32,000 bases of DNA from Clostridium sp. OM02-18AC (lineage in GTDB: Bacteria; Bacillota; Clostridia; Lachnospirales; Lachnospiraceae), in the NCBI RefSeq assembly GCF_003481825.1, contig NZ_QULW01000027.1:9737-41736 (forward strand). Direction: 5' to 3'. The translations under genes were made by a program, and so were the position numbers. Numbering within the stretch: position 1 is the stretch's first letter; every line of letters begins with the position of its first letter. Positions 4,496 through 32,000 of this stretch are shown piece by piece. The notes beneath the pieces are model-generated. The model searched no databases and was not told the DNA's origin. It worked only from the letters and a program-made list of their open reading frames with translations.

Positions 4496-4501
4496 TTGTT
4501 T

Positions 4502-5413
4502 TTATTCCTCCTCAAAGGTCAGCTCTCTGGTCCAGCCATCCCGTGCAGTCTTTGCTGCCGGGAAGATTTCCCTCACCTTATCAATAAATTCTTCCGGATG
4601 GTTTAAGGAAGGACTGTAATGCGTCAGCCACATTTCTGCCGGCTGCGCTTTCTTTGCCAGGTTTGCTGCCTCGTACATCGTCATATGCTTATATTCCCGG
4701 GCCTTGACTTCTTTTCCGTCTTCGCCGTACATGCCCTCACAGATAAACAGATCTGCATGGTCTGCGTACTCCGCGATGACCGGAACCGGTCTGGTATCCG
4801 TACAATACGTAACTTTCAGACCCTTGCGATCCGGTCCCAGGACCATATCCGGCGTATAAGTCACTCCGTCTAAGGTCAGGGTCTCGCCTTTCTGCAGGCG
4901 GCTCCATGCCTTCATCGGCACATTCTGCGCTTTCGCCCGCTCCACATCAAAGCGGCCTGCACGCGGAATGGAAATGGAATAGCCATAACAGACCACATTA
5001 TGGTTTACCCGGTAAGCATCGATCACATAAGGTCCGATATGAAACTGCTGTCTGTTTTCTTCCAGCTCGATAAACTTTAACTGGAATGGGAGCTCCGGTG
5101 CGATGGTGCGGAGCGCATTCACGACCCGCTCTAAGCCCTTGGGACCGATCAATGTGACCGGCTCCGTACGCTCAGCATTGCCCATCGTGAGAAGAAGCCC
5201 TGGAAGTCCACTGATGTGGTCTGCGTGGTAATGGGTAAAACAGATCACATCGATGGGCTTCGGGCTCCATCCTTTTTCTTTCAGCGCCACCTGCGTTCCT
5301 TCTCCGCAGTCGATCAAAAGACTGCTGCCGTCACAACGCGCCATCATCGCAGTCAGCCAGCGGTACGGAAGCGGCATCATCCCGCCGGTTCCCAGTAAAC
5401 AGATATCTAACAT
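4502..5413 (-). CDS. rnz: Ribonuclease Z / MBL-fold metallo-hydrolase
   Basis: 303 aa. It begins LGTGG, has the HxHxDH motif (THYHADHISGLPGLL), and matches RNase Z in overall length. Confidence 0.82.
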   Translation of the reverse strand: MLDICLLGTGGMMPLPYRWLTAMMARCDGSSLLIDCGEGTQVALKEKGWSPKPIDVICFTHYHADHISGLPGLLLTMGNAERTEPVTLIGPKGLERVVNALRTIAPELPFQLKFIELEENRQQFHIGPYVIDAYRVNHNVVCYGYSISIPRAGRFDVERAKAQNVPMKAWSRLQKGETLTLDGVTYTPDMVLGPDRKGLKVTYCTDTRPVPVIAEYADHADLFICEGMYGEDGKEVKAREYKHMTMYEAANLAKKAQPAEMWLTHYSPSLNHPEEFIDKVREIFPAAKTARDGWTRELTFEEE

Positions 5414-5461
5414 AAATCGATTAACCTCATTTCATTTGATGCTGATATCATAGCATAGCGT

Positions 5462-5704
5462 TTAGATGAATTCAACCGCTTCCTCGATTTCCGGGGCGAT
5501 CGCAAACTGCCGGATAAGCTGGTCATAGCACTCCTCACACAGATCCCAATGATGGATCTCGCCGTCTTTTTCAGAAAAGTAATCCCAGGAATAATGAACC
5601 GAAAAGCTTCCCTCCCGCAGGATGCCTCGCTCCACCACCTGTTTTTTTCCGCAGCCATTGCAGATGACCGATTCCAGGGTTCCGTTTGTCTGATATTTTC
5701 TCAT
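5462..5704 (-). CDS. Hypothetical small zinc-ribbon-like protein (80 aa)
   Basis: Two CxxC pairs (CNGCGKK and CEEC). It has its own upstream terminator and an AT-rich promoter region. I recognise no family. Confidence 0.55.
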   Translation of the reverse strand: MRKYQTNGTLESVICNGCGKKQVVERGILREGSFSVHYSWDYFSEKDGEIHHWDLCEECYDQLIRQFAIAPEIEEAVEFI

Positions 5705-5769
5705 GTCTTGTTCCTCACCTTTTCGTTCCTGTTTCTATACAGGTGTGCATTTTTTTATTCTGTCTTTTT

Positions 5770-5810
5770 AGAATAAAACAGGGGACACGGCACGTCGGCC
5801 GCATCCCCTA
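5770..5810 (-). terminator. Rho-independent terminator after rimI
   Basis: The minus strand reads AGGGGAtgcggccgacgtgccgtgTCCCCTgttttattct, a GC stem followed by a T-rich tail, 25 nt after the rimI stop. Confidence 0.6.
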
Positions 5811-5835
5811 CATTATAATAGAAATATTCGTAATT

Positions 5836-6276
5836 TTAAGTGGTAATTTTTTCCGGCAGATCCCGTTTCCACATGATCACGGCATCCTCGGCCGGGTTGT
5901 GATAATAGGCCTTGCGTACTGCCTCTGCCTGAAAACCATAGGATTCATACAGGTTTCTGGCCGCCAGATTGCTCTCGCGCACCTCCAGGCTGATGGCATA
6001 GGCCCGCTCGCGGATAGCATACTCTACCATGGCATCCATCATTTTTCTGCCAAGACCAAGCCTGCGGCTGTCCGGATGCACCGCGATCCGCTGTACTTCT
6101 CCCTCGCCTGCGAGGACACGCAGGTTGCAATAACCCAGGATTTTTTCTTCCTGTTCAAACACATAGTAGACATCGTACGGACTGTGGATCCCGGACTCCA
6201 GGATATGGTAGGACCAGTTTTCCGAAAAGCAGAGCTTTTCCAGTTCTGCTACCGCCGCAAGATCCCGTTCTTCCAT
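5836..6276 (-). CDS. rimI: Ribosomal-protein-alanine N-acetyltransferase (GNAT)
   Basis: The GNAT core (QRIAVHPDSRRLGLGRKMM) sits in the conserved position after tsaB. I prefer the ATG at 6276 (MEERDLAAV...). An alternative GTG at 6288 overlaps the tsaB stop as GTGA. The 216-aa ORF-track version overlaps tsaB and is not credible. Confidence 0.85.
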   Translation of the reverse strand: MEERDLAAVAELEKLCFSENWSYHILESGIHSPYDVYYVFEQEEKILGYCNLRVLAGEGEVQRIAVHPDSRRLGLGRKMMDAMVEYAIRERAYAISLEVRESNLAARNLYESYGFQAEAVRKAYYHNPAEDAVIMWKRDLPEKITT

Positions 6277-6284
6277 CCGGCGGA

Positions 6285-7040
6285 TCACTGTGCATCTCCT
6301 GTTCCGACACTGTGTCCGGCTGCCAGCTCTTCGGTCTTTCCCTGCCGCTTTGCCTCTTCCAGCTCGCGTTCTGCCTGAGCTTTCCGCAGGTAATCCGGCG
6401 CGTGGTCCATAGCCGATACCGTCTTGCCTTCCGCAAAATACAGACTTCCCAGAGCAGCAACACTGGCTCCTCTCTGGCGGTTGCACTGCGCCGGAGCAAA
6501 AGAAAACGGAACACGAAGTGTTTCCCGGATCACCTTTTCACTGACCGGAACTCCATCGCCCAAGAAGATCACACGCTCCCCACGGGCATTCAATTCCCCG
6601 GTCAGTTCATGAATGTCCATGCCGCACTGCGCTTTTACCACCTCAAATGCATCCTCATAATGATAAAGCCCCGTGTAAACCTGTCCTCTTCTTGCATCCA
6701 TGACTGGGCAGATGAGCGCAGAAGTTCCGTACAGATTGTACGCCATGGCATCCATCGTCGGCACATGGACCAGCGGCTTATTAAGCGCAAGTCCGAGTCC
6801 TTTTGCTGTTGCGGAGCCAATGCGCAGGCCGGTATAAGAGCCCGGCCCTCCGGATACCGCAATCGCGTCCACATCGTTCAGATCCAGTTCCAGCATGCGG
6901 GTCACCTCATCGATCATGGGGAGCAGCGTCTGGGAATGGGTCTTTTTTAAGTTTACGGTATATTCTGCCGTTACCAGTCCATCAGTCACCACAGCCACAG
7001 AAGCCACCAGCGACGAGCTTTCTATTCCAAGTGTTTTCAT
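6285..7040 (-). CDS. tsaB: tRNA threonylcarbamoyladenosine biosynthesis protein TsaB
   Basis: 251 aa. It has the YeaZ/TsaB N-terminus (MKTLGIESSSLVASVAVV). Its ATGA start overlaps the tsaE stop. Confidence 0.9.
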   Translation of the reverse strand: MKTLGIESSSLVASVAVVTDGLVTAEYTVNLKKTHSQTLLPMIDEVTRMLELDLNDVDAIAVSGGPGSYTGLRIGSATAKGLGLALNKPLVHVPTMDAMAYNLYGTSALICPVMDARRGQVYTGLYHYEDAFEVVKAQCGMDIHELTGELNARGERVIFLGDGVPVSEKVIRETLRVPFSFAPAQCNRQRGASVAALGSLYFAEGKTVSAMDHAPDYLRKAQAERELEEAKRQGKTEELAAGHSVGTGDAQ

Positions 7041-7465
7041 GACAATCCCTCCACCGTTATCTTCCGGTAATCAAATCCCTGTTCCAGATCCTTCTCAATC
7101 CGGATGCGGACCACCTGTTCCGGTAAAATTTCCGGGATCAGCTGGGACCACTCGATCAGGCAGACGCCTTCCCCGTAAAAGCAATCCTCGTAGCCGATCT
7201 CATCCATCTCGCTGACATCCCCGATCCGGTATACATCAAAATGATACAGCGGCAGACGCCCGCTGTCATACTGCTGCACGATCGTAAAGGTCGGGCTGTT
7301 TACCGGTTCCTCAATACCAAGCCCGGCTGCAAAACCCTGGGTAAAAATCGTCTTGCCCACTCCAAGATCTCCGTCCAGACAGTAAATCTCACCCGCTTTT
7401 GCCTGCTCACCCAGGCGTTTTCCAAGGGCAAAGGTTTCCTCCGGGCTGTTGCTTCTATATTCCAT
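7037..7465 (-). CDS. tsaE: tRNA threonylcarbamoyladenosine biosynthesis ATPase TsaE
   Basis: 142 aa. It has the Walker A-like motif GDLGVGKT and the SPTFT motif typical of YjeE/TsaE. Confidence 0.92.
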   Translation of the reverse strand: MEYRSNSPEETFALGKRLGEQAKAGEIYCLDGDLGVGKTIFTQGFAAGLGIEEPVNSPTFTIVQQYDSGRLPLYHFDVYRIGDVSEMDEIGYEDCFYGEGVCLIEWSQLIPEILPEQVVRIRIEKDLEQGFDYRKITVEGLS

Positions 7466-8055: not shown

Positions 8056-10197
8056 TTACAGCTTCATGGTCAATGCAATACGCTTCTTATTCAAGTCCAC
8101 GCTTAAGACCTTCACCTCGACAATATCACCAACACTGACTGCCTCCAGCGGATGCTTGATATAGCGCTCCGTCATCTGGGAAATGTGCACCAGACCATCC
8201 TGATGAACGCCGATATCCACAAAGGCACCAAAGTCAATGACATTGCGCACGGTTCCCTTTAATACCATACCCGGCTTCAGGTCCTTCATTTCCAATACAT
8301 CCGTGCGCAGGATCGGCTTTGGCATCTCCTCGCGCGGGTCTCTCGCCGGTTTTTCCAGTTCTTTTACAATATCCTTTAAGGTGATCTCACCCAGACCCAG
8401 CTCCTCTGCCAGCCCCTTGCAGCCACGCACCTTTCTGCCAAGCTCTTTCAGACCGCCAGATACAATATCTTCTGCCTGATAGCCCAGCTTCTGGAGCAAC
8501 GCCTCAACCGCCTCGTAGCTTTCCGGATGTACGGAGGTCATGTCCAGAGGATTTGTGCCGCCGTTGATGCGCATGAAACCGGCGCACTGTTCAAATGCCT
8601 TCGGTCCCAGCTTTGCAACCTTTAACAGCTGCTTCCGGTTTGTGAATACGCCGTTTTCTTCGCGATAAGCTACAATGTTCTTTGCGATGGTTTTGGTCAC
8701 ACCGGAAATGTACTCCAGAAGAGATGCAGATGCGGTATTTAAATCCACACCAACCCGGTTTACACAGTCTTCCACAACGCCCTGCAGCGTTTCACTTAAG
8801 TTTTTCTGGTTCATATCGTGCTGGTACTGACCAACACCGATGGATTTTGGATCGATCTTAACCAGCTCTGCCAGCGGGTCCTGCAGTCTTCTTGCGATGG
8901 ATGCCGCGCTTCGCTGTCCCACATCGAAGTTCGGGAACTCCTCCGTAGCAAGCTTGCTTGCCGAATATACGGATGCGCCTGCCTCATTGACGATCACATA
9001 CTGCACCTGCTGCGGAATCTCTTTGATCAGGTCTACAATGATCATCTCAGACTCACGGGATGCAGTTCCGTTTCCCACCGAAATCAGGGAAATGTTATAT
9101 TTTTTGATGAGATCCTTTACCACCTTCTTGGATTCCTCAACCTTATTCTGCGGTGCAGTCGGATAGATCACAGTTGTGTCCAGTACCTTTCCGGTCGCAT
9201 CCACAACAGCGAGCTTACAGCCGGTACGGAATGCCGGGTCCCAGCCCAGTACCACACGGCCTGCTACCGGCGGCTGCATCAGAAGCTGCTTTAAGTTCTT
9301 TCCAAAGACCTTGATCGCGCCTGCCTCTGCATTCTCCGTCAGGAAACTGCGGATCTCACGCTCAATGGCCGGTGCGATCAGACGGCGGTAGCTGTCCTCT
9401 GCCACTTCCTTTAATACCGGGGTTGTATACGGGTTGTCCTGTGTGATCACCTGTTTTTCCAGATAACGCAGAATGGTTTCCTCCGGTGCATCGACCTTAA
9501 CCGTCAGGACTTTTTCTTTCTCGCCGCGGTTTAAAGCCAGGACACGGTGTCCCGCACACTTTTTCACCGGCTCCTCGTACTGATAATACATCTCGTATAC
9601 CGATTCCGCTTTTTCATCCTTGGCCTGGGAACGAATCATACCCTGCTCCATGGTAGCCTGACGAATGTAGGTACGGTAATCCGCCTGGTCGGAGATGCGC
9701 TCCGCAATGATATCCTTTGCGCCCGCCAGCGCATCGGCAGCCGTCGGCACTTCATTTTCTTCGGACACATAGTTTTCAGCAAGCTTCTCCACCGGCTCCT
9801 TCACCTGCTGAAGCAAGATCAGGTCTGCAAGCGGCTCCAGTCCACGTTCTTTCGCGATCATGGCACGGGTACGGCGTTTCGGGCGGTACGGACGGTACAG
9901 ATCCTCGAGCGCTACCATGGTCATCGCATCCTGGATCTGTTTTTCCAGCTCCGGTGTCAGCTTTTCCTGATCGCGGATGGAAGAAAGAACCTGGTTCTTC
10001 TTTTCTTCCAGATTGCGCAGGTAACGCAGACGTTCATCCAGATTACGAAGCACCTCGTCGTTTAACGATCCGGTTGCCTCTTTCCGGTAGCGGGCAATGA
10101 AGGGAATGGTATTTCCCTCATCGATCAGCTGGACGGCTGCCTCCACCTGCTTATATCCGATCTGCAGTTCCTCCTGCAATGTTTTCAAAATATCCAT
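8056..10197 (-). CDS. tex: Tex-like transcription accessory protein with C-terminal S1 RNA-binding domain
   Basis: 713 aa. The N-terminus contains IPFIARYRKE, followed by a YqgF/HhH core and a C-terminal S1 domain (GTVRNVIDFGAFVDIG...GLVHISQM). Confidence 0.93.
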   Translation of the reverse strand: MDILKTLQEELQIGYKQVEAAVQLIDEGNTIPFIARYRKEATGSLNDEVLRNLDERLRYLRNLEEKKNQVLSSIRDQEKLTPELEKQIQDAMTMVALEDLYRPYRPKRRTRAMIAKERGLEPLADLILLQQVKEPVEKLAENYVSEENEVPTAADALAGAKDIIAERISDQADYRTYIRQATMEQGMIRSQAKDEKAESVYEMYYQYEEPVKKCAGHRVLALNRGEKEKVLTVKVDAPEETILRYLEKQVITQDNPYTTPVLKEVAEDSYRRLIAPAIEREIRSFLTENAEAGAIKVFGKNLKQLLMQPPVAGRVVLGWDPAFRTGCKLAVVDATGKVLDTTVIYPTAPQNKVEESKKVVKDLIKKYNISLISVGNGTASRESEMIIVDLIKEIPQQVQYVIVNEAGASVYSASKLATEEFPNFDVGQRSAASIARRLQDPLAELVKIDPKSIGVGQYQHDMNQKNLSETLQGVVEDCVNRVGVDLNTASASLLEYISGVTKTIAKNIVAYREENGVFTNRKQLLKVAKLGPKAFEQCAGFMRINGGTNPLDMTSVHPESYEAVEALLQKLGYQAEDIVSGGLKELGRKVRGCKGLAEELGLGEITLKDIVKELEKPARDPREEMPKPILRTDVLEMKDLKPGMVLKGTVRNVIDFGAFVDIGVHQDGLVHISQMTERYIKHPLEAVSVGDIVEVKVLSVDLNKKRIALTMKL

Positions 10198-12926: not shown

Positions 12927-14064
12927 TTAGTCGTCCGCAGATGCCTTACGGTCCGGGCATCCCAGGCTCAGCCAGCGCAGGTAGGCACTGATAAACGGGT
13001 CCAGCCCGCCATCCAGGACATTTGCCACGTTTCCGGTTTCTTCCCCGGTACGCAGATCCTTGACCATGGTGTATGGCTGAAGAACATAGGAACGGATCTG
13101 GTTGCCCCAGCCGATTTCTTTGACATCACCGCGGATATCAGAAAGCTTCTCTGCATTTTCCTGCTGCTTGAGCATATACAGCTTCGCCTTTAACATCTGC
13201 ATGGCTTTGTCTTTATTCTGGAACTGGGAACGCTCATTCTGGCACTGTACCACGATTCCGGTCGGAATATGGGTGATACGGATAGCAGAAGAAGTCTTGT
13301 TGATGTGCTGTCCACCGGCACCACTGGAACGGTAGGTATCGATCCGCAGATCGTCCGGATTGATCTCAACATCCAGGTCCTCTTCAATATCCGGCATGAC
13401 ATCACAGGATACGAAAGAAGTCTGGCGCTTTCCTGCTGCATTGAACGGAGAAATGCGCACCAGACGGTGTACACCGCGTTCGGATTTCAGGTATCCAAAC
13501 GCATTCTCGCCATTGATCTGGATGGTCACAGACTTAATGCCCGCTTCATCGCCGTCCAGATAATCCAGGACCTCGGTTTTATACCCCATCTTGTCTGCCC
13601 AGCGGCAGTACATCCGGTACAGCATACTGCACCAGTCACAGGACTCCGTTCCGCCTGCACCTGCATTCAGGCGCAGAATGGCATTGTATTTGTCGTATTC
13701 CCCTGACAGCAATGTCTCCATACGGAGTTTTTCCAGATTGCGCTGGAACTCATCCAACATTTCCTGGATCTCCGGGATCAGGGAAGGGTCCTCCTCCTCG
13801 TAGCCCATCTCGATCATCACCTGGATGTCTTCATACTGCTGTTCCAGACCACGGTAGAGCTCTACGGTATCCTTTAAGTTCTTCGCCTCCTGCACCAGCT
13901 TGGTGGCGCGGTCCGCGTCGTCCCAGAACCCCGGCTCCTCCATGGATTTATCTAATTCATCGATTCGTCTGACCTTGTTATCCAGGTCAAAGTGAATCCC
14001 TCACTTCCACTAATGGTTTTTCAAAGGTCGATAATGTGTACTTGAACTGATCTAATTCTACCAT
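12927..14064 (-). CDS. prfB: Peptide chain release factor 2, requiring a programmed +1 frameshift
   Basis: Frame 0 (14064-13990) encodes MVELDQFKYTLSTFEKPLVEVRDSL and then hits TGA at 13989-13987. The +1 frame from 13988 continues DLDNKVRRIDELDKSMEEPGFWDD... into the 338-aa track ORF, which carries the SPF and GGQ motifs (ISPFN, SSGAGGQHINK). An RBS (GAAGGTGA) precedes the ATG. Confidence 0.93.
13986..14005 (-). promoter_or_regulatory. RF2 autoregulatory +1 frameshift site (SD-like element plus CTT TGA C)
   Basis: The minus strand reads GTGAGGGATTCA CTT TGA C. CTT is at 13992-13990, TGA at 13989-13987 and C at 13986. A purine-rich SD-like GAGGGA lies a few nt upstream. Confidence 0.9.
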
Positions 14065-14160: not shown

Positions 14161-16737
14161 CTATCTCGGCATCAGATCACGGCCATGACACTGTTTGAAC
14201 TTCTTGCCGCTTCCGCACGGGCACGGATCGTTCGGGTAGATTTTCTGTACCTGACGTACCTTCGGTGCACGCGGTGCAGAATCGTCACGGTTGGTTCCGG
14301 TTACCTTTGCTGCCGGCTCACGCTCGATTTTCTGCTCAACACGGATGTGGAACAGGATGCGGACGGTCTCCTCGGTGATGGCTGCAGTCATTGCCTCAAA
14401 CATCTCGTAAGCACTCATCTTGTACTCAACAACCGGATCTCTCTGGCCGTAAGCCTGCAGACCGATACCCTGACGCAGCTGGTCCATATCGTCGATGTGG
14501 CTCATCCACTTATTGTCAATGACTTTCAGAAGGACTACGCGCTCCAGCTCACGGATCTGCTCTGCCTCCTGGAACTCAGCCTCTTTCGCCTCGTAAAGCT
14601 TGATCGCCTCTTCTTTCAGCATGTGCTTTAATTCATTCTTCTTGGTCACCGGATGATTCTCTGCGGTGATGGTCTCAAGCGGAATGATCGGAAGCAGAAG
14701 GCTGTTTAATTCATTCAAATCCCAGTCAGAGGATGCCTGGTCATCGGAGATGGACAGGTCTACGGAATTCTCGACAATGTCGGTGATCATCTTTAAGATC
14801 AGGTCACGCATGTTGTCGCCATCCAGAACCTTGCGGCGCTCTGCGTAGATGATCTCACGCTGCTCGTTGTTAACCTCATCATATTTTAAGAGATTCTCAC
14901 GGATACCGTAGTTGTTGTTCTCGATCTTCATCTGTGCTTTCTCGATCGCGCTGGAAAGCATCTTGTGCTCGATCTGCTCACCCTCCGGAACGCCCAGAGC
15001 CTCAAACATAGCCATAAGACGCTCAGAACCGAACAGACGCATCAGATCGTCCTCAAGGGAAATATAGAAGCGGGACTCACCCGGGTCACCCTGACGTCCG
15101 GAACGGCCACGCAGCTGGTTGTCGATACGGCGGGATTCATGACGCTCGGTACCAATGACCTTTAAGCCGCCTGCTGCCTTTGCCTCATCATCCAGCTTGA
15201 TATCGGTACCACGACCAGCCATGTTGGTCGCGATGGTAACGGCACCGTGAATACCTGCATCTGCCACGATCTCAGCCTCGAGTTCATGGAACTTCGCGTT
15301 CAGGACTTTATGCTGGATGCCGCGCTTGGTCAGCATCTTGCTGAGAAGTTCGGAAGTCTCGATGGTGATGGTACCAACCAGCACCGGCTGTCCCTTCTCG
15401 TGGGAAGCCACTACATCGTTGACAACTGCCTCAAATTTTTCTTTTTTCGTCTTGTATACAGCATCCTCATGGTCGATACGCGCAACTGGACGGTTGGTCG
15501 GGATTGCGATCGCATCCATGCCGTACGTATTACGGAACTCCTTCTCCTCGGTCAGCGCAGTACCGGTCATACCTGCTTTCTTGCGGAACTTATTGAAGAA
15601 GTTCTGGAAAGTGATGGTTGCCAGAGTCTTGCTCTCGCGGCGTACATTGACATGCTCCTTCGCCTCGATTGCCTGGTGCAGACCATCGGAATAACGGCGG
15701 CCCGGCATGATACGTCCGGTAAACTCATCGACAATGAGTACCTCGTCGTCTTTTACCACGTAATCCTTATCGCGGAACATCAAGTAATTCGCGCGCAGGG
15801 CAAGAATAATATTGTGCTGGATCTCCAGGTTTTCCGGATCTGCCAGGTTCTCAATATGGAAGAACTGCTCTACCTTCTTGACACCCTCTTCGGTTAAGTT
15901 TACAACTTTATCTTTTTCATTTACTACGAAATCACCAGTCTCCTCGATGTCCTCACCCATGATCGCGTTCATCTTGGTGAACTCGCCGGATGCCTCACCG
16001 CGTACCAGCTGGTGAGCAAGCACGTCGCAGACCTCGTAGAGCTTGGTGGACTTGCCGCTCTGACCGGAAATGATCAGCGGGGTTCTTGCTTCATCGATCA
16101 GGACAGAGTCCACCTCATCGATGATGGCATAGTCCAGATTTCTGAGTACCATCTGATCCTTGTAGATGGCCATGTTGTCACGCAGGTAATCAAATCCCAG
16201 CTCGTTGTTGGTAACGTAGGTGATGTCGCAGTTGTATGCAGCCTTACGTTCCTCAGAGGTCATCGGGTTTAATACCACGCCGACAGTCAGGCCCAGGAAA
16301 CGGTGAACCTGTCCCATCCACTCTGCATCTCGCTTTGCCAGGTAGTCATTGACGGTTACGATGTGAACGCCCTTTCCTGCCAGTGCATTTAAGTATGCCG
16401 GAGAGGTGGAAACCAGAGTCTTACCTTCACCGGTTCTCATCTCAGCGATACGACCCTGATGCAGCACGATACCACCAATGAGCTGCACCGGATAATGCTC
16501 CATGTTCAGCACACGCTTTGCAGCCTCACGTACCGTAGCGAATGCCTCCGGAAGAATATCGTCCAGGGTCTCACCGTTTGCCAGGCGCTCCTTGAAGATA
16601 CGGGTATTGTCGCGCAGTTCCTCATCGGTCTTTGCCTGCATGGTCGGGCGCAGTGCCTCAATCTTGTCCACGATCGGATAGATCATCTTCAGTTCCCGCT
16701 CACTGTGGGTACCAAATACTTTTTCTATGAGATTCAT
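14161..16737 (-). CDS. secA: Preprotein translocase ATPase SecA
   Basis: I prefer the start [17 protein letters not shown] at 16737, with RBS AGGAGAAAG. It has the DEAD-like motor motifs and the C-terminal zinc finger [14 protein letters not shown]. Confidence 0.95.
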
Positions 16738-16805: not shown

Positions 16806-16834
16806 ATTGTACCACCTTCCCCTGATTTATTCAA
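16806..16834 (-). promoter_or_regulatory. Candidate sigma-A promoter of secA-prfB
   Basis: The minus strand has TTGAAT (16834-16829), a 17-nt spacer and an extended -10, TGgTACAAT (TACAAT at 16811-16806). Confidence 0.5.
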
Positions 16835-16992
16835 GTTTTCCCCTTCTTGTTCACAAAAAATTTACCTTCTGCTTACTTTTTCTTTCGGAATCCTCATAAA
16901 ATCACCTGGATTGACCTGCTGCGGCGAATCCGGGTCCTGTAAAATTATGGTAAACTTGTCAGGTTGCACAAAAAACATGTTCGATTCACAAC

Positions 16993-17255
16993 TTATCCAC
17001 TTTATCCACAATATCCACGAAAAATGCATCCACATCTCATTTCCTTGATTTTCAGCCAAAAATGAGTTATGCACCAAGTTATCCACATTATCCACAAAGT
17101 TTTCCCACATTTTTCTGTTCTTTTCTGACGGAAAAAAATAGGTTTTTCTTTGTTCATATCTCATAAATCCACTGTTTAAGCCAAAAAATAAAGGAAAACC
17201 TCTTGACTTTTCTACATTTCCAAAGGTAGGAATGCAATTTATATTTTGTGGATAA
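16993..17255. promoter_or_regulatory. DnaA-box cluster (4 perfect and 5 near-consensus TTATCCACA boxes)
   Basis: Perfect boxes lie at 17002-17010, 17079-17087 and 17088-17096 on the plus strand, and at 17247-17255 as TGTGGATAA. Variants matching 7-8 of 9 positions lie at 16993-17001, 17011-17019, 17026-17034, 17067-17075 and 17101-17109. Confidence 0.8.
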
Positions 17256-17312
17256 AGTATTCGTTTTTATATTTCATTCGCAATAATTGTCTCAACAATT
17301 TCCCGTTTTTAG

Positions 17313-17341
17313 TTGAATTTTTCGGTTTTATATGTTATACT
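17313..17341 (+). promoter_or_regulatory. Candidate sigma-A promoter of hpf
   Basis: TTGAAT (17313-17318), a 17-nt spacer, then TATACT (17336-17341), about 30 nt upstream of the hpf ATG. Confidence 0.5.
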
Positions 17342-17373
17342 TAGGACATCTCAAAAGAAGGAGCTGATGACTT

Positions 17374-17901
17374 ATGCGTTATACCATTACAGGCAGAAAT
17401 ATTGATGTGACTCCGGGGCTTCGCGCCGCCATTGAGGAAAAGATTGGAAAACTGGAACGTTACTTCCTTCCGGATACCGAAATCATCGTAACGCTCAGTG
17501 TACAGAAAGACAAACAGAAAATCGAAGTTACCATCCCGGTGAAGGGAAATATCATCCGTGCGGAAGAATCCAGCAACGATATGTACGTGTCCATTGATTT
17601 GGTAGAGGAAATCATTGAACGCCAGCTTCGCAAATACAAAAACAAACTGATCGACAAAAAACAGTCCGCACAGGCATTCTCAGATCTGTTCATCAGCGAA
17701 GAGAGCGAGCCGGATGACGAGATCCAGATCGTGAAAACCAAACGTTTCGCCATGAAACCGATGGATCCGGAAGAGGCTTGTGTCCAGATGGAACTGTTAG
17801 GCCATAACTTCTATGTATTCTTAAACGCAGAGACCGAGGAAGTCAATGTTGTTTACAAGAGAAAAGGTCAGACCTACGGACTGATCGAGCCGGAATTCTA
17901 A
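17374..17901 (+). CDS. hpf: Ribosome hibernation-promoting factor, long form
   Basis: 175 aa. The N-terminal YfiA/HPF domain (ITGRNIDVTPGLR) is followed by a C-terminal dimerisation domain (FYVFLNAETEEVNVVYKRKGQTYGLIEP). The RBS is GAAGGAG. Confidence 0.93.
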   Translation: MRYTITGRNIDVTPGLRAAIEEKIGKLERYFLPDTEIIVTLSVQKDKQKIEVTIPVKGNIIRAEESSNDMYVSIDLVEEIIERQLRKYKNKLIDKKQSAQAFSDLFISEESEPDDEIQIVKTKRFAMKPMDPEEACVQMELLGHNFYVFLNAETEEVNVVYKRKGQTYGLIEPEF

Positions 17902-20844: not shown

Positions 20845-21576
20845 ATGGCAAAGAAAGTTGTTCTCGTAACCGGCGCTTCCCGCGGAATCGGAAAAGCCAT
20901 TGCCGTAAAATTTGCAAAAAAAGGCTATAACGTGATCATCAACTGCGCCCACCGGGAGCAGGAATTGATGCAGACCAAAAAAGAAATTGAGCGTTATCAG
21001 GTAACCTGCGCTGCATTTTTAGGGGATATGGGCGATATGGCGGTCTGTGAGCAGCTGTTTTCCATGATCCGCAAACAGTTTGGCAGTCTGGATGTCTTAG
21101 TCAACAATGCCGGTATCGATTATATTGGTCTTTTGCAGGATATGACTTCTGAGGAGTGGGACCGCATCCTGCGTACCAACCTGACCTCCGTATTTAACTG
21201 CAGCAAGCTGGCCATTCCGCTGATGCTTGCCGCCGGTCACGGAAAGATCATCAACATTTCCTCCGTATGGGGCTGCGTAGGCGCTTCCTGTGAAGTCGCA
21301 TACTCTGCCACAAAGGGCGGCATCAATGCCTTCACCCAGGCACTGGCCAAAGAACTTGCTCCAAGCAATATCCAGGTCAACGCCGTTGCCTGCGGTGCCA
21401 TTGACACGGAAATGAATCAGTGGATGGAGGAAGATGAGCTGATCGGGCTGGTTGAGGAAATCCCATCCGGTCGTCTCGGACGTGCGGAGGAAGTCGCTGA
21501 TTTCGTTTATCATCTCGGCTACAAAGGCTCTTACTTAACCGGTCAGATCATAAAACTGGATGGAGGCTGGATCTGA
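20845..21576 (+). CDS. SDR-family oxidoreductase (FabG-like 3-oxoacyl reductase fold)
   Basis: 243 aa. It has the cofactor motif TGASRGIG, NNAG, and the catalytic YSATK. The RBS is AAAGGAG. Confidence 0.88.
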   Translation: MAKKVVLVTGASRGIGKAIAVKFAKKGYNVIINCAHREQELMQTKKEIERYQVTCAAFLGDMGDMAVCEQLFSMIRKQFGSLDVLVNNAGIDYIGLLQDMTSEEWDRILRTNLTSVFNCSKLAIPLMLAAGHGKIINISSVWGCVGASCEVAYSATKGGINAFTQALAKELAPSNIQVNAVACGAIDTEMNQWMEEDELIGLVEEIPSGRLGRAEEVADFVYHLGYKGSYLTGQIIKLDGGWI

Positions 21577-26513: not shown

Positions 26514-27665
26514 TTAGGGCTTCGTTGATTGTTGCGTTGGCAACCCCACCACAATGGTAGTGCCCTTCTCCGAACTTTTCTCCACCCAAACGGAGCCGCC
26601 GTGGAGATCGGCGATCTCCCATACCAGTGAGAGCCCCAGTCCTGCGCCACCGTATTCCCGGCTGCGAGACTTGTCCACCCGGAAGAAGGGCTGGAAGATG
26701 CTGCGCTGATACACCTCCGGAATGCCGCAGCCGGTGTCGGAGACGCGGAGCAAGAGCTTTTCCAACTCCTGAGTGACAGAAACCCGTACCGAGCCGCCCG
26801 GCCGGTTGTACTTGACAGCATTCTCCGTCAGGTTGAAGATCAGCCGGTAGATCAGTGCATCGCTGCCGGTCATAATGCCGTCGCCCTCCGCCGTCAGCGT
26901 GACGCCGCGCTTATCTGAGAGCGGCGCAAGATCTGTGAAGATCTCCTCGATCATGGGAGCGAGCTGGATCCGCTCGTTCCGCGCCACCTGCCGCAGATTG
27001 CTCATCTCCAGCAGTGTCCTGGTCATCTGTATCAGCCGTTCCGTCTGCTCACGCAAAAGCGTAAGGAACTCCGCCGTCTCCGGTCGCACGTCAGGATGCT
27101 CCGCGGAAAACAGCTCCAACTGCGCCTGCATTAGTGCCAGTGGCGTGCGCAGCTCGTGGGCGGCGTTGCCGGTGAACTGCCGCTGGGCGGAAAAGGCGTT
27201 GTTCAGCCGCTCCAGCATCTGGTTGAACGAGCGGCTCAGCTGCCGGAACTCCGAAATAGCGTCTTCATCGATCCTCATATCGGCAAGATTGTTCAGCTGC
27301 ACCTGCTCCACCTGCGAGGTAAAGCTGCGCAGGGGCTTGAGAGCGCGTCCGCTGACGAAATAGGCGAGGATGCCGCTGAGCAGCGTTACCGCCGCCGTGA
27401 TGTACCAGTTGGTGGTGCGGAAGCGCCCCTGCACCCCATCGACGACGATGATCAACTCCTCGTTGGGCGCTATGAGCTGCGGGTCAAAGCTCGCCGCTCC
27501 GCCATCATTCAGGATCACCGTGCCGCCGCCTTGTAAACTGTCCGCAATGGTGTCCATATAGTACACACCGGAGGAGCACAGCAGCAAATTCATGGCCACG
27601 CAGGTGATACCGATGAGCAGAACGGACATCAGCGTGATGCGCCACTGCAGGGAAAACCGCTTCAT
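26514..27665 (-). CDS. Sensor histidine kinase (two TM segments, HAMP, HisKA, HATPase_c)
   Basis: 383 aa. It has the H-box FTGNAAHELRTPL, the N-box NLTENAVKYN and the G-boxes DTGCGI / GGAGLGLS. An extracytoplasmic loop of about 60 aa lies between the TM segments. Confidence 0.9.
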   Translation of the reverse strand: MKRFSLQWRITLMSVLLIGITCVAMNLLLCSSGVYYMDTIADSLQGGGTVILNDGGAASFDPQLIAPNEELIIVVDGVQGRFRTTNWYITAAVTLLSGILAYFVSGRALKPLRSFTSQVEQVQLNNLADMRIDEDAISEFRQLSRSFNQMLERLNNAFSAQRQFTGNAAHELRTPLALMQAQLELFSAEHPDVRPETAEFLTLLREQTERLIQMTRTLLEMSNLRQVARNERIQLAPMIEEIFTDLAPLSDKRGVTLTAEGDGIMTGSDALIYRLIFNLTENAVKYNRPGGSVRVSVTQELEKLLLRVSDTGCGIPEVYQRSIFQPFFRVDKSRSREYGGAGLGLSLVWEIADLHGGSVWVEKSSEKGTTIVVGLPTQQSTKP

Positions 27666-28339
27666 TCCTCCTCGCCTCCCATCAGATAGCCCTCGCCGAT
27701 GCGGTTGCGGATGGGGTCATAGCCCAGCACGGCGCGGAGCTTTTTGCGCAGGGCGGAGATGTGGACGCGAATGGAATTGCTGAAGCTGTCCACGCTATTG
27801 TCCCAAACGTGATCCATCAGCTCCTCCTGACTTACTGGCCTTCCTTGATGCACCATCAGGTATTCCAGGATTCCCGTTTCCTTCCGGGTGAGCGTCAGCG
27901 TCTGCCCGTTGACGGTGGCGGTACGGGAGCGGGTGTCAAAGGTCAGGTCTCCGCAGCTTAGCAGCACATCCTGCTGGGTGAACTGCCGCAATGTCAGGCT
28001 GCGGATGCGGGCCTCCAGCTCCGCCAAGTGGAAGGGCTTCGCCAGATAGTCGTTCGCCCCGGCATCCAGCCCCTGCACCTTGTCCTCCACTTCGCTGCGG
28101 GCGGAGAGGATCAGCACCCGCGTCTCCCGGTCGGTCTGCCGCAGGGTGCGCAGCACCGTCATGCCGTCCTTTTTCGGCAGATTCAGATCAAGAAGCACCA
28201 GATCGTATCGTTCCACGCCCAGAAGCGCCAGCGCCTTTTCGCCGTCATAGCAGTAGTCCACGCTGTAGGCCAGCCGCCGCAGGCTGCGAACGATAGTCTC
28301 GCACAGGGCGCGTTCATCTTCAATTACTAAAAGGTGCAT
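27662..28339 (-). CDS. OmpR-family response regulator
   Basis: 225 aa. The receiver domain (LVIEDE...DLVLLDLNLPKKDG) is followed by a winged-helix output domain (LTRKETGILEYL). It overlaps the kinase gene by 4 nt. Confidence 0.93.
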   Translation of the reverse strand: MHLLVIEDERALCETIVRSLRRLAYSVDYCYDGEKALALLGVERYDLVLLDLNLPKKDGMTVLRTLRQTDRETRVLILSARSEVEDKVQGLDAGANDYLAKPFHLAELEARIRSLTLRQFTQQDVLLSCGDLTFDTRSRTATVNGQTLTLTRKETGILEYLMVHQGRPVSQEELMDHVWDNSVDSFSNSIRVHISALRKKLRAVLGYDPIRNRIGEGYLMGGEEE

Positions 28340-28420
28340 GAGAGTCCTCCTTTTTATTTCTTCATTTTTGTGTTGCTTTCATTATAGCAAAAACAGATAA
28401 GGTTTGCGTTAAGTTTTCGT

Positions 28421-28455
28421 TCTTAACAGAGACTTTAACTCTCCCGCGCTATGAT
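28421..28455 (+). promoter_or_regulatory. Candidate response-regulator-dependent promoter (direct repeats overlapping the -35, plus TATGAT)
   Basis: cTTAACagaga / cTTTAACtctc repeats sit about 12 nt apart (TTAAC at 28423-28427 and 28435-28439, with a further TTAAG at 28409-28413). TATGAT lies at 28450-28455, about 32 nt before the small-ORF ATG. Confidence 0.35.
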
Positions 28456-28486
28456 GGGGGCAGAAAATCGGAAAGGGTGATGAAAA

Positions 28487-28633
28487 ATGAGCTGCAAGAA
28501 AAAGGCCGCAGCGCAGGTCGTGCTGCTGATGGCCGGAGCCGCCATGCTGTGCTTCGGTGTCTGGCGGGGCGAGGCGGCGACAGTGCTGAGCAAAGCAATC
28601 AAATTATGTCTGGAGTGTGTGGGCATTGGGTAA
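28487..28633 (+). CDS. 48-aa membrane peptide with C-terminal CxxC (below the ORF-track size cutoff)
   Basis: The ATG at 28487 follows GAAAGGGTGA and encodes MSCKKKAAAQVVLLMAGAAMLCFGVWRGEAATVLSKAIKLCLECVGIG*. That gives one TM helix plus CLEC. Its stop overlaps the possible TTG start of the next gene. From memory it resembles the short CXXC peptides labelled CD1871A-family in databases. Confidence 0.65.
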   Translation: MSCKKKAAAQVVLLMAGAAMLCFGVWRGEAATVLSKAIKLCLECVGIG

Positions 28634-29534
28634 AAAGTTTTCAGGCGTTTCACAGACCATGTCCCGCTTCCGGGGCTGGATTCAGGCGGGGGCGACGCTG
28701 CTGACCAACCTGCATCTGCCGAACTTTCTCAAGGGCGGACTGTATCAGGGGGCGGGGAAGACCGTCTGCGTGCCGGGACTGAACTGCTACTCCTGTCCGG
28801 CGGCGTCCGGGGCCTGCCCCATTGGGGCGTTTCAGGCAGTGGTGGGGTCTTCCAAGTTCAGCTTCTCCTACTATATCACAGGCTTTCTCATTTTGCTGGG
28901 AGTCCTGCTGGGACGCTTTATCTGCGGCTTTCTATGCCCCTTCGGCTGGTTTCAGGAGCTGCTGCACAAAATCCCCACGAAGAAGCTTTCCACAAAAAGG
29001 CTGAAGCCGCTGACATACCTGAAATACGCTGTCCTGCTGGTGATGGTTTTCCTGCTACCAGTGTTCCTTGTGAACGATGTTGGCATGGGAGACCCGTTCT
29101 TCTGCAAATACCTCTGCCCCCAAGGCGTACTGGAGGGAGCCATCCCGCTGTCCCTTGCCAATTCCGGCATCCGGGCGGCGCTGGGCAAGCTGTTTACATG
29201 GAAATTCAGCATCCTGCTGTCGGTGATCGCGCTGAGCGTGCTGTTCTACCGACCGTTCTGCAAGTGGCTTTGCCCGCTTGGCGCGTTCTATGCGCTGTTC
29301 AACCGGGTGTCCCTCTTCCAGATGAAGGTGGACAAGAGTAAGTGCGTCTCCTGTGGGAAATGTGCCAGAGCCTGCAAGATGGATGTGGATGTGACGAAAA
29401 CGCCCAACCATACCGAGTGCATCCGCTGCGGAATGTGCATCCGCGCCTGTCCAACGAACGCCGTGTGCTTCCGCTACGGCTTCGGCAACGGGAAAGAAAC
29501 AACAAAGAAAACAACGATGGAGGAATCAAAATGA
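28626..29534 (+). CDS. Membrane-bound 4Fe-4S binding protein (NapH/MauN-like polyferredoxin)
   Basis: It has repeated CP motifs in or near TM helices (CYSCPAASGACP, FLCPFGW, YLCPQG, WLCPLG). Two ferredoxin motifs are also present (CVSCGKCARAC and CIRCGMCIRACP). The start is uncertain: TTG 28626 (coupled to the upstream peptide), GTG 28617 or ATG 28659. Confidence 0.85.
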   Translation: MGKKFSGVSQTMSRFRGWIQAGATLLTNLHLPNFLKGGLYQGAGKTVCVPGLNCYSCPAASGACPIGAFQAVVGSSKFSFSYYITGFLILLGVLLGRFICGFLCPFGWFQELLHKIPTKKLSTKRLKPLTYLKYAVLLVMVFLLPVFLVNDVGMGDPFFCKYLCPQGVLEGAIPLSLANSGIRAALGKLFTWKFSILLSVIALSVLFYRPFCKWLCPLGAFYALFNRVSLFQMKVDKSKCVSCGKCARACKMDVDVTKTPNHTECIRCGMCIRACPTNAVCFRYGFGNGKETTKKTTMEESK

Positions 29535-30490: not shown

Positions 30491-30586
30491 CCTGAGATTT
30501 AAAAAGTGCCTGCTGCGCGCCATTGCATTGCCCTCGGCGGGCAAGGGGCGGAGTGAGCTCTGATTCCCCTGAAAGGAGGAAACGCG

Positions 30587-31702: not shown

Positions 31703-31728
31703 GTTCGCATAATACAATGATATAATAA

Positions 31729-31768
31729 GCAGCGGTCCAATCATTATGAACCGGGCCGCTGTCGTTTA
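31729..31768. terminator. Stem-loop / weak terminator between msrAB and the convergent small ORF
   Basis: The sequence is GCAGCGGTCCaatcattatgaaccGGGCCGCTGtcgttta, a 9-bp stem with one G-U pair and a weak T tail. Confidence 0.5.
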
Positions 31769-31781
31769 TGCTCATGTCGGT

Positions 31782-32000
31782 TTATTCAAACAGGACGTTC
31801 AGCTTGCTGTTCAGAATCAGATCGGCATAAGCAAGCGGGTCGTTGTAGATCAGATAATCCAGCTCTGACCACTGGAAGCGGTTATCGGCAACTTCGTTTT
31901 CAACGGCGGTGAAGTCAATGGAAATCCGGCTTCCATCGTCAAAAACCAGTTCTACGCTGGCTGTGTCGATGTTGAATTGACAGAAAATAAGTTTACTCAT
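31782..32000 (-). CDS. Hypothetical 72-aa acidic protein
   Basis: A complete ORF with ATG at 32000-31998 (MSKLIFCQFNIDTASVELVFDDGSRISIDF...). I recognise no motif, and its upstream region lies outside the window. Confidence 0.5.
   Translation of the reverse strand: MSKLIFCQFNIDTASVELVFDDGSRISIDFTAVENEVADNRFQWSELDYLIYNDPLAYADLILNSKLNVLFE

Follow-up and report, generated by a model that had tools for sequence, protein, structure and literature searches.

Besides initiating replication, DnaA acts as a transcription factor, and clusters of DnaA boxes are known to exist outside the origin of replication. The E. coli datA and DARS sites are non-origin clusters with a bendable A/T-rich element between the boxes; their functions require IHF or Fis, which Bacillota are not known to have, and DARS additionally requires oppositely oriented boxes. 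At datA, essential boxes are combined with bound IHF as the bending protein, and the hydrolysis of DnaA-ATP is stimulated. In B. subtilis, DnaA acts from such clusters as an activator of sda and as a repressor of dnaA, ywlC and yydA. The B. subtilis clusters outside oriC are located at gcp-ydiF, yqeG-sda, ywlC-ywlB, ywcI-vpr, yydA-yycS and thdF-jag (PMC2533591, PMC3245932), and the deletion of six clusters causes over-initiation (Okumura 2012, PMC3245932). Stable DnaA binding in this species is captured by the value A, calculated over four successive boxes as summed affinity divided by mean distance, for which a threshold of 0.3 marks all eight ChIP sites (Ishikawa 2007, PMC2533591). In E. coli, DnaA ChIP-seq revealed a preference for the geometry weak box, 3 bp, perfect box, and its transcription-factor sites consist of two boxes separated by 2-3 bp (Stringer et al. 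2024, PMC11317965). Chromosomal origins coincide with a switch of GC skew, the cumulative minimum, and in Bacillota they usually adjoin dnaA/dnaN. They also follow a rule of their own, with at least three NAN trios within 16 bp of a box and then a conserved AT-rich unwinding element (PMC8287927).

The locus described here shares with the B. subtilis clusters the intergenic location, at least four TTATNCACA-type boxes, an A value above 0.3, the conservation among relatives and the position next to a gene whose promoter the boxes may control. It differs from them in its partner gene, hpf, and in the greater rigidity of the Lachnospiraceae cassette, with fixed spacings, one orientation and a -35-like element at a fixed distance. 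Neither yvyD/hpf nor secA appears in the main text of the B. subtilis IDAP-seq paper or the cluster-deletion paper, and our literature search on DnaA together with hpf, hibernation factors or Lachnospiraceae returned nothing relevant and no paper linking DnaA boxes to hpf. We consider the array very probably a genuine non-origin DnaA-binding cluster, and we give roughly even chances to our preferred explanation, a DnaA-responsive upstream promoter module for hpf that would also soak up DnaA. This organization suggests that DnaA may help control ribosome hibernation.

Nine DnaA boxes between secA and hpf

In the window, by which we mean the whole 32-kb stretch of DNA analysed, the 636-bp spacer between the divergent genes secA and hpf contains nine DnaA boxes, all within 263 bp (16993-17255). 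Four are perfect copies of TTATCCACA, three on the plus strand (17002-17010, 17079-17087 and 17088-17096) and one on the minus strand (17247-17255). The other five are variants, of which TTATCCACT at 16993 matches 8/9 positions and ATATCCACG (17011), GCATCCACA (17026), TTATGCACC (17067) and TTTCCCACA (17101) match 7/9 each. Two groups abut head to tail with zero spacer (16993/17002/17011 and 17079/17088). No further perfect box occurs in the window, for which shuffles expect 0.23, and none of 100 shuffles reached at least four; the expectation for 263 bp is ~0.002 (Poisson P(>=4) ~6e-13). The value of A reaches 0.63 at 17002-17096, which is above the threshold for stable DnaA binding; the next best value in the window is 0.04. 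The first-pass annotation had reported this dense array, including the two zero-spacer groups, and recomputing its positions and variants confirmed it. It had further described an AT-rich tract with a putative hpf promoter behind the inverted box and a window free of dnaA and dnaN; both descriptions held, as 17256-17345 has 73% A+T and contains a strong promoter match (P1, 17313-17341), and the gene and domain content of the window includes neither gene. The features of the region are as follows.

14161-16737, minus strand: secA, 858 aa, divergent from hpf (Pfam SecA domains; public gene calls, start 16737)
16806-16834, minus strand: proximal secA promoter, TTGAAT-17-TACAAT with extended -10 TG (consensus scan; strongly conserved in 48 relatives)
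16944-16971, minus strand: distal promoter-like element facing secA, TTGTGC-16 nt-CATAAT (conserved in 48 unique secA-divergent relatives)
16964-16974, plus strand: left-flank motif TTGCACAAAAA (conservation in relatives)
16993-17019, plus strand: distal box group TTATCCACT, TTATCCACA, ATATCCACG, abutting head to tail (box scan)
17026-17034, plus strand: central box, GCATCCACA here and TTATCCACA in most relatives (spacing conservation)
17047-17064, no strand: T-tract/A-tract element GATTTT-N5-AAAAATG between the central and the weak box, with a conserved T4...A4 pattern
17067-17096, plus strand: invariant core, weak box TTATGCACC, 3 bp (AAG), then TTATCCACA TTATCCACA abutting (conservation)
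17101-17109, plus strand: weak box TTTCCCACA, 4 bp past the proximal pair (box scan)
17148-17167, plus strand: spacer elements CTTTGT ... TCATAAA (mean conservation 0.81; also in a non-hpf copy of the cassette)
17203-17232, plus strand: putative distal hpf promoter P2, -35 TTGACT (17203-17208), weak -10 TAGGAA, 18-nt spacer (fixed distance to the boxes)
17247-17255, minus strand: inverted perfect box, at or just after the start predicted from P2 or from an alternative TTTCCA-17-TATATT (17217-17245)
17285-17300, no strand: palindrome AATTGT-CTCA-ACAATT just upstream of P1 (conserved in the secA-divergent clade)
17313-17341, plus strand: proximal hpf promoter P1, TTGAAT-17-TGtTATACT, extended -10 (consensus scan)
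17374-17901, plus strand: hpf, long-form hibernation-promoting factor, 175 aa (Pfam Ribosomal_S30AE and Ribosom_S30AE_C)

The invariant TTATGCACC-AAG-TTATCCACA arrangement, with the weaker box upstream as at purH, resembles the E. coli double-box sites (PMC11317965). Compared with those sites, the doublet is embedded in a larger array with 0-bp pairs and phased distal boxes, which brings it closer to an oligomerisation region than to a simple dimer site.

The ribosome-binding site of hpf, GAAGGAG, is located at 17357-17363, and P1 is kept in all relatives, including those devoid of the array. The palindrome just upstream of P1 is likely an operator for a regulator other than DnaA. We found no sign of a structured RNA or leader in the stretch from the array to hpf, where RNAalifold yielded 0 consensus pairs among 19 sequences; an Rfam search gave no match at the gathering score or at E<=1, and a tRNA search was negative as well. 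A 100-aa ORF on the minus strand (16862-17164) is called in a single public annotation and not in the other assemblies, overlaps the boxes, and was treated as spurious.

A cassette conserved upstream of hpf in Lachnospiraceae

Conservation of the array at the same synteny point in relatives, raised as a check by the first-pass annotation, was evident: in 70 of 81 related loci, the region upstream of hpf has an A value above 0.3, with values of up to 3.5. The density of perfect boxes is 4.6 per kb over the 620 bp that precede hpf, compared with 0.038 per kb in the other 1.31 Mb. The core, consisting of the weak box and the proximal pair, was found in 69 unique relatives and also upstream of hpf genes of 48-68% identity; some hpf genes preceded by the cassette are no more than 48-51% identical to that of the window. 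A search with the HPF protein itself matched close relatives only, at identities of at least 86%, and did not reach distant taxa.

The boxes are the predicted DnaA-binding part of a conserved cassette of ~270-330 bp that is found across Lachnospiraceae and has the order TTGCACAAAAA, distal pair, central box, T/A tract, weak box-3 bp-perfect pair and, ~106 bp further on, TTGAC(T/A). Its boxes share one orientation and helical register (333 forward and 10 reverse boxes among the relatives), and the -35-like TTGAC(T/A) reads towards hpf. The proximal pair is 99% conserved and its flanks 45-46%. A tandem distal pair is present in 49/69 relatives, at a distance from the proximal pair of 88-89 bp in 38 relatives, 77-79 bp in eight (the clade of the window) and 67 bp in one; these differences correspond to whole helical turns. 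Of the 50 relatives with a central box, 38 have its start exactly 53 bp ahead of the proximal pair, and in 46 the distance is 52-54 bp. TTGAC follows the proximal pair at 106 +/- 2 bp in 62/69 relatives, and its distance to the ATG is free (120-363 bp). A good -10 completes this element in 17 relatives (TTGACT-16-TATAGT), and in many others the P2 -10 is weak. At the other end of the cassette, the TTGCACAAAAA motif has a mean majority-base frequency of 0.88 in 68 relatives, compared with 0.56 for the whole spacer. Two boxes of the window deserve separate mention: the weak box at 17101 has a one-mismatch counterpart at the matching place (about -273) in Lacrimispora and others, and the inverted box at 17247-17255 is clade-specific, occurring only in the closest relatives (L001, L011-L015).

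The cassette also contains conserved motifs other than boxes, namely TTGCACAAAAA, TTTTGT/TCATAAA and an element similar to TTCGACA that looks like a Spo0A box. Judged by eye, neither alternative sigma factors nor sigma-54 offered a fitting reading of TTGCACAAAAA, TCATAAA or TTGAC. The T/A tract (17047-17064) is a possible bend or nucleoid-protein site. A covarying hairpin at this position was rejected, given weak palindromy (best stem 3.99 bp, compared with 3.24 bp in shuffles) that consists mostly of T4/A4 and is not fixed in position.

The cassette lies upstream of hpf whether secA is divergent, downstream or absent. The distance from the array to the hpf ATG is ~200-430 bp, with the orientation preserved, and the other flank is formed by secA (minus strand), an SDR gene (minus strand) or various plus-strand genes, amounting to at least six different left neighbours. 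The array has remained with hpf even through an inversion that placed hpf head-on to replication. Exceptions to this linkage are L133, in which the cassette is inverted and points at secA, and L022, with a 1.1-kb insertion. In three further loci (L059, L075 and L087), the array and P2 have both been lost and P1 alone is left.

Copies were also found away from hpf. In the metagenome sample, TTGAC occurs at +103 to +108 in 10/16 hpf-linked pairs and in 15/56 other pairs, with 1.5% expected by chance. One copy without hpf adjoins the 3' end of a V-type ATPase operon and is followed by ~400 bp of non-coding DNA; here, as in loci in which secA is not upstream, the TTGCACAAAAA motif is kept. The existence of such copies and the orientation of the L133 copy towards secA show that the cassette is an autonomous unit and not strictly an hpf element. 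Identical box pairs in the same sample adjoin dnaA/rpmH and precede a DnaD/DnaB-type initiation gene.

A putative DnaA-responsive promoter module

As expected for a DnaA-regulated promoter, the boxes are fixed relative to a promoter element and their linkage to hpf is kept through rearrangements. We infer DnaA binding, the activity of the promoters and the direction of regulation from the sequence, and the following course of events appears plausible. DnaA would bind the high-affinity pairs and oligomerise along the phased boxes, with the T/A tract aiding the bending of the DNA. The resulting complex would modulate the distal promoter P2, from which transcription of hpf is predicted to start, and in the clade of the window the extra inverted box at the P2 start could also block P2. 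Transcription of hpf would thus track free DnaA, in its amount or its activity, and with it the replication status, on top of the constitutive-looking P1, which would remain. Any cluster of this kind would necessarily sequester DnaA too.

This arrangement resembles that at the B. subtilis sda promoter, where the boxes are likewise upstream of, and not over, the promoter, and it would similarly tie the replication status to a decision between growth and dormancy. Target and organism differ, however; activation at hpf would be by analogy alone, and the clade-specific inverted box at the P2 start would repress.

The first-pass annotation had offered three options for the array: DnaA-dependent control of hpf and/or secA-prfB, a titration locus, and an origin or its relic. 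Control of hpf has gained support from the preserved orientation of the array and its distance to hpf, and from the -35-like hexamer at a fixed 106 bp; coupling to secA-prfB as the primary role is not supported, since the array is retained in loci that lack secA or have it downstream of hpf, and the origin has dropped out. Several observations count against control of hpf. A classical operator would be expected closer to its promoter than these boxes, which are 200-320 bp away from P1 and at least ~107 bp away from the P2 -35. The -10 of P2 is weak here (TAGGAA) and in many relatives, so that P2 may not serve as a sigma-A promoter in every genome. The cassette also occurs without hpf (the 15/56 metagenome pairs mentioned above), five related loci do without the array, and the boxes would be conserved in the same way if they served titration.

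Alternative explanations

The strongest competitor is a pure DnaA reservoir or activity-control site like yydA-yycS, ywcI-vpr or E. coli datA, which would restrain re-initiation and to which the adjacency of hpf would be incidental. We regard this as a minority possibility, about half as probable as the module for hpf. The T/A tract between the boxes recalls the bend site of datA, and in the hpf cassette this tract has a conserved T4-N5-A4 pattern; compared with DARS, the core boxes of the cassette are all in one orientation. The A value sufficient for stable binding, the copies in hpf-less contexts without an ORF downstream, the distance of the boxes from P1 and the over-initiation in the B. 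subtilis deletion strain (PMC3245932) are all consistent with titration. It leaves unexplained, however, the fixed 106-bp distance to the -35-like hexamer across contexts, the constant orientation towards the downstream gene and the joint loss of the array and P2. As to the chromosomal position, hpf maps to 3.09 Mb in the 3.75-Mb record CP141832.1 and to 2.05 Mb in the 5.63-Mb record CP070896.1, counted from the record start, which is not necessarily dnaA; if the CP141832.1 record starts at dnaA, hpf would be ~0.67 Mb (~64 degrees) away from dnaA and not origin-proximal, which would count against titration.

Control of secA-prfB by DnaA, with the boxes acting mainly on the divergent element at 16944-16971, is improbable. 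This element may act as a promoter: it is conserved in the 48 secA-divergent relatives, in which the TTGCACAAAAA motif supplies its -35 (TTGTGC, minus strand), and the nearest DnaA box begins 22 bp upstream of this -35. Moreover, the whole cassette aims at secA in L133, and the probably ancestral gene order hpf-secA-prfB would allow read-through to reach secA. Against this, the array is retained where secA is downstream of hpf or not found within 10 kb, the leftward element has no conserved -10 where secA is not upstream, and secA has a strong proximal promoter of its own.

It is more improbable still that the repeats bind a protein other than DnaA or were selected for another reason. The other conserved motifs of the cassette (TTGCACAAAAA, TTTTGT/TCATAAA and the Spo0A-box-like TTCGACA) would fit such a reading, but the invariant units are the exact universal high-affinity DnaA box, the variants fit TTATNCACA, the spacings are known for DnaA, and the identical pairs mentioned above adjoin dnaA/rpmH and precede a gene for a DnaD/DnaB-type initiation protein.

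An origin, or an origin relic displaced from dnaA, would account for the dense high-affinity cluster, the AT-rich tract on one side and the uniform minus-strand orientation of the genes on the left, and the tandem same-orientation high-affinity pair is indeed shared with the basal unwinding system of oriC (PMC8287927). Beyond the box cluster, the sequence features of an oriC are missing. GC skew in the window is negative on both sides of the array (-0.13 on the left; -0.04 and then -0.13 on the right) and does not become positive until 27-32 kb, where a GC-rich island devoid of boxes is located; its sign is likewise unchanged across the array in every related locus with both flanks (~75), being positive in some and negative in others. 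The 24 kb on the left and the 15 kb on the right of the array contain no dnaA, as judged from a search for DnaA signatures in the window and 7.4 kb further left, which answers the earlier question of a dnaA a few kb past the window, and no such signature was detected within +/-10 kb in 90 related loci. Conserved DnaA-trios or an unwinding element, expected within 16 bp of the boxes, were not found either, as the 50 nt past the proximal pair are 0.46 conserved and range from 30 to 82% A+T among relatives. An origin, already disfavoured in the earlier reading, is thus effectively excluded by the lack of a skew switch, of a nearby dnaA and dnaN and of a conserved trio and unwinding module.

A possible link between DnaA and ribosome hibernation in gut Clostridia

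DnaA targets have been mapped in few model species, and we know of none in gut Clostridia. A family-wide cassette upstream of hpf would provide a concrete and testable link between the replication status and ribosome hibernation as a means of shutting down translation, in organisms that dominate the human colon and of which several are cultivable (Lacrimispora, Enterocloster, Clostridium symbiosum). Its rigid layout, with helical-turn spacings, one orientation and a fixed distance to the -35, makes it a clean natural substrate for studying DnaA oligomers that act on promoters at a distance. If its role were titration only, the array would add another case to a known kind and would be of modest interest. 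In the more far-reaching scenario, which we put forward tentatively and hold to be less probable than the module for hpf itself, a self-contained DnaA-responsive promoter cassette would make hpf a direct output of the replication-initiation status in Lachnospiraceae and some distant Bacillota; its copies would drive further targets, among them an unannotated transcript beside the V-type ATPase operon, and together with a murC-dnaD/dnaB-type cluster it would define a DnaA regulon in gut Clostridia.

A DnaA-box array between secA and hpf

The first-pass observation of a DnaA-box array (16993-17255) in the secA-hpf spacer was fully confirmed: four perfect TTATCCACA 9-mers are present with no others in the 32 kb, and the five variant boxes match their description. 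Shuffled sequence contained 0.23 perfect boxes on average and never reached four; base composition predicts 0.002 perfect boxes per 263 bp (Poisson P(≥4) ~6e-13), in agreement with the claim that the clustering is not due to chance. The window is contained in contig QUEH01000023.1 (assembly GCA_003477935.1). The organism is a member of the Lachnospiraceae, and its HPF shares 98% identity with the HPF proteins of 'Clostridium sp. AF27-2AA' and Ventrimonas faecis.

Features of the secA-hpf region in the window
Further left of secA, all (-): tsaB, rimI, MBL-fold gene, tsaD, ispD
Left of secA, all (-): prfB, ACT-domain gene, hom, tex, YcxB-domain gene, tsaE
16737 (-): secA start; 636-bp spacer to hpf, with the array inside
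16806-16834: strong proximal secA promoter, conserved in 48 secA-divergent relatives
16944-16971: distal promoter-like element on the secA side, TTGTGC-16-CATAAT, -35 located 22 bp from the first box, conserved in 48 secA-divergent relatives
17247-17255: inverted perfect box, exclusive to the window's clade
17313-17341: P1, proximal hpf promoter, TTGAAT-17-TGtTATACT with extended -10, ~30 nt upstream of the hpf ribosome-binding site
17374-17901 (+): hpf
Right of hpf: acyltransferase (-), NlpC/P60 gene (-), SDR gene (+), LysR gene (+), greA (-)
Further right of hpf: M20 peptidase (-), SNF transporter (-), two-component pair (-)

The AT-rich tract at 17256-17345, described earlier as harboring the putative hpf promoter, is 73% A+T and indeed contains a strong sigma-70-type match. 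The inverted box lies at or just past the predicted start of the putative distal hpf promoter P2 (-35 TTGACT, 17203-17208) or of an alternative TTTCCA-17-TATATT match, and this is the classical position for blocking a promoter. A palindrome, AATTGT-CTCA-ACAATT (17285-17300), ends 12 bp upstream of the P1 -35 and is kept in the secA-divergent clade; it is probably an operator for some other regulator, and in some relatives its half-site reads TGTCGNA, resembling a Spo0A box.

Several observations concern the neighboring genes. The tsaE-tsaB-rimI-(MBL-fold gene)-tsaD cluster occupies 3443-7465. A canonical CTTTGAC +1 frameshift site of prfB lies at 13986-13992 (-), upstream of ORF 12927-13943, and in public calls the product has 338 aa (second frame only) or 378 aa (joined). 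The GenBank-annotated 100-aa ORF overlapping the array (16862-17164, -) is uncalled in same-species metagenome assemblies and very likely spurious. L065, L066 and other Lacrimispora loci (L numbers denote the loci and metagenome stretches compared) have a perfect box within the first secA codons, ~-689 from the hpf ATG, which encodes I-V-D-K (TGTGGATAA, coding strand) and probably arises by coincidence from the coding sequence; a version with two mismatches lies at 16664-16672 in the window.

The array is linked to hpf across relatives

Conservation in relatives, a check proposed with the first-pass annotation, was examined in 80 loci of other species fetched by HPF similarity (73-98% identity), and perfect and one-mismatch boxes occur upstream of hpf in nearly all of them. 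This holds with secA divergent (about 50 loci), with secA downstream of hpf as likewise in Bacillus (L053, L061, L062, L072, L080, L083, L084) and with no secA inside 10 kb (L040, L041, L048, L051, L068, L071, L081, L090). Box density is 4.6/kb in the 620 bp upstream of hpf versus 0.038/kb across the remaining 1.31 Mb. The array is truly absent in five loci (L059, L074, L075, L086, L087); in L059, L075 and L087 only ~170 bp with the proximal promoter is left between the SDR gene and hpf.

In many loci without upstream secA, the left neighbor is a divergent SDR gene, and in the window the same gene (20845-21576) lies on the right side of hpf. A small inversion of the unit of array and hpf thus appears to have occurred in the window's clade, and would have put hpf head-on to replication with the array staying attached to it.

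In the metagenome-assembled genome L022, a 1.1-kb insertion (8620-9830) carrying a 314-aa ORF without obvious family separates the array from the proximal hpf promoter. A mouse-gut subclade (L021:17483-17523, also L017, L033, L035) has an extra box cluster 5.6-7.9 kb downstream of hpf (A = 2.33, the affinity index defined below), by eye inside an ORF with an HRLDK, pseudouridine-synthase-like motif and with an oppositely oriented perfect box 145 bp away.

A rigid cassette with predicted DnaA binding

Alignment of 69 unique upstream regions, anchored on the abutting proximal pair (17079-17087 and 17088-17096), revealed an invariant core GAGTTATaCACcAAG-TTATCCACA-TTATCCACA (17063-17096 in the window), the pair being 99% conserved versus about 45% in the flanks. 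Fifty relatives have a central box, which in 38 of them begins 53 bp upstream of the pair; a distal abutting pair lies 88-89 bp (38 relatives), 77-79 bp (8, the window's clade) or 67 bp (1) upstream, so that length changes correspond to whole helical turns. Boxes face hpf in 333 cases and the opposite way in 10. Between the central and weak boxes lies a T-tract/A-tract element, GATTTT-N5-AAAAT; its palindromy is weak and we do not claim a hairpin. A left motif, TTGCACAAAAA, is conserved (0.88) also where secA is not a neighbor.

Right of the array follow TTTTGT/TCATAAA, an A-tract and then TTGAC(T/A), which 62 of 69 relatives carry 106 ± 2 bp past the last box, while its distance to the hpf ATG ranges between 120 and 363 bp. 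TATAGT follows at 16 nt in 17 relatives (Lacrimispora, Hungatella and others), giving a good promoter match; the -10 of putative P2 in the window, TAGGAA, is weak. The RNA between array and hpf yielded neither a consensus structure nor a known RNA family.

To gauge binding, we used the A value, the summed affinity of four successive boxes divided by their mean distance, with the distance convention reproduced from Table 2 of PMC2533591. In B. subtilis, A > 0.3 singles out exactly the eight regions that are DnaA-bound in cells (Ishikawa et al., PMC2533591). The array scores 0.63 and the rest of the window ≤0.04; of 81 relatives, 70 lie above 0.3, the highest value being 3.5. The invariant doublet of the cassette (weak box, 3 bp, perfect box) matches the arrangement favored by E. 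coli DnaA at its transcription-factor sites (PMC11317965). From these sequence features we infer that the array would be bound by DnaA.

The cassette in other gene contexts

Scanning metagenome contigs for the abutting perfect pair yielded at least 120 stretches, which were sorted by neighboring genes; the sample is rich in gut metagenomes and its fractions are descriptive only. Among the matches listed, at least 16-17 lie upstream of hpf, including hpf genes 48% (L127), 51% (L150) and 64-68% identical to the window's; these share the core, and 10 of 16 have TTGAC at +103 to +108. At least 9 of those listed adjoin dnaA or rpmH, and none of these 9 dnaA-adjacent pairs carries the full cassette with TTGAC at that distance. 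At least about 56 are in other contexts; here, 15 of 56 testable pairs listed carried the whole cassette with TTGAC at +103 to +108, versus 1.5% by chance.

An even commoner context than hpf among the matches listed (at least 38; L104-L218, e.g., L119:4620-4765, L108, L154, L204) is the spacer between the murC 3′ end and a DnaD/DnaB-type replication-initiation gene (Pfam DnaB_2), often with two pairs 77-180 bp apart, all facing the latter. The arrangement suggests a helicase-loading gene under DnaA control in gut Bacillota.

A recurrent hpf-free context (L136:8390-9050, L165, L116, L201, L202, L122 among those listed) is flanked on one side by an NlpC/P60 or MatE gene and on the other by the 3′ end of a convergent V-type ATPase operon; there the cassette is complete (TTGCACAAA, phased boxes, TTTTGT and TTGACT at +103/104). 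About 400 bp of A/T-rich DNA past it contain no ORF and no Rfam match and may therefore encode an unannotated transcript. In L133:1811-2596, the sole such locus among those compared, the cassette is flanked by divergent hpf and secA and faces secA. Occurring without hpf or facing secA, the unit of box array plus TTGAC at fixed distance is autonomous, and hpf is its usual but not sole partner in the Lachnospiraceae.

Proposed function

We favor a DnaA-responsive distal promoter feeding hpf, because the distance and orientation of the boxes relative to the -35-like hexamer are fixed across genera and contexts and both are lost together. A DnaA complex upstream would set the activity of P2, with P1 providing DnaA-independent hpf expression. 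DnaA of B. subtilis activates sda from its box cluster and represses dnaA, ywlC and yydA from theirs; here, the upstream box position suggests activation or anti-repression, and the inverted box of this clade points to an additional, repressive layer in the window's species.

The main rival is titration as the sole function of the array. A cluster of such affinity will hold DnaA, so titration would accompany promoter control, but a mere DnaA sink explains poorly the fixed distance and orientation to the hexamer and their joint loss. As for the control of hpf and/or secA-prfB raised in the first-pass annotation, the spacing and joint loss support the hpf part, while secA control is a minor possibility, confined to the window's clade.

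The array is not a replication origin or an origin relic, the reading already disfavored earlier: skew, DnaA searches and the lack of a conserved unwinding module all oppose it. Plus-strand GC skew is -0.13 left of the array and, to the right, -0.04 over 17.4-22 kb, where genes lie on both strands, followed by -0.13 over 22-27 kb. In every relative with two-sided sequence, the sign is equal on both sides of the array, negative with hpf divergent from secA and positive with hpf preceding secA. Searched in all six frames, neither the window nor any of 90 loci showed the DnaA signature or the DnaA-type Walker A motif, and the 7.4 kb of contig to the left, where dnaA might have lain just past the window, encode an Opp-type ABC transporter, MgtC and FAD oxidoreductases. 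Origin unwinding modules comprise box(es), a spacer ≤16 bp, ≥3 NAN trios and then an AT-rich element (PMC8287927); among the relatives compared, no conserved form of this follows the proximal pair, where the next 50 nt show the lowest conservation in the spacer (0.46), with an A+T content between 30% and 82%.

Only at 27-32 kb, in a block without DnaA boxes, does skew become weakly positive. This block (27000-32000; 55-60% G+C versus 50%) contains a response regulator/histidine kinase pair, a 4Fe-4S protein and an ORF overlapping an AhpC/redoxin gene as publicly called in related loci. Its two-component genes have quite different neighborhoods in other assemblies; given the varied neighborhoods of the regulator protein and several contigs ending nearby, it is probably an acquired or variable island.

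Full-text literature searches returned no paper tying DnaA boxes to hpf, yvyD, a hibernation factor or the Lachnospiraceae, and the main text of the B. subtilis in vitro DnaA binding paper mentions neither yvyD/hpf nor secA. The array belongs to a known class, that of non-origin DnaA-box clusters or DnaA-regulated promoters; distinctive here are the unusually rigid, family-wide architecture and the biologically suggestive partner gene hpf. With its conservation, what was a curiosity of one genome becomes a hypothesis that can be tested, in which replication would be linked to ribosome hibernation.
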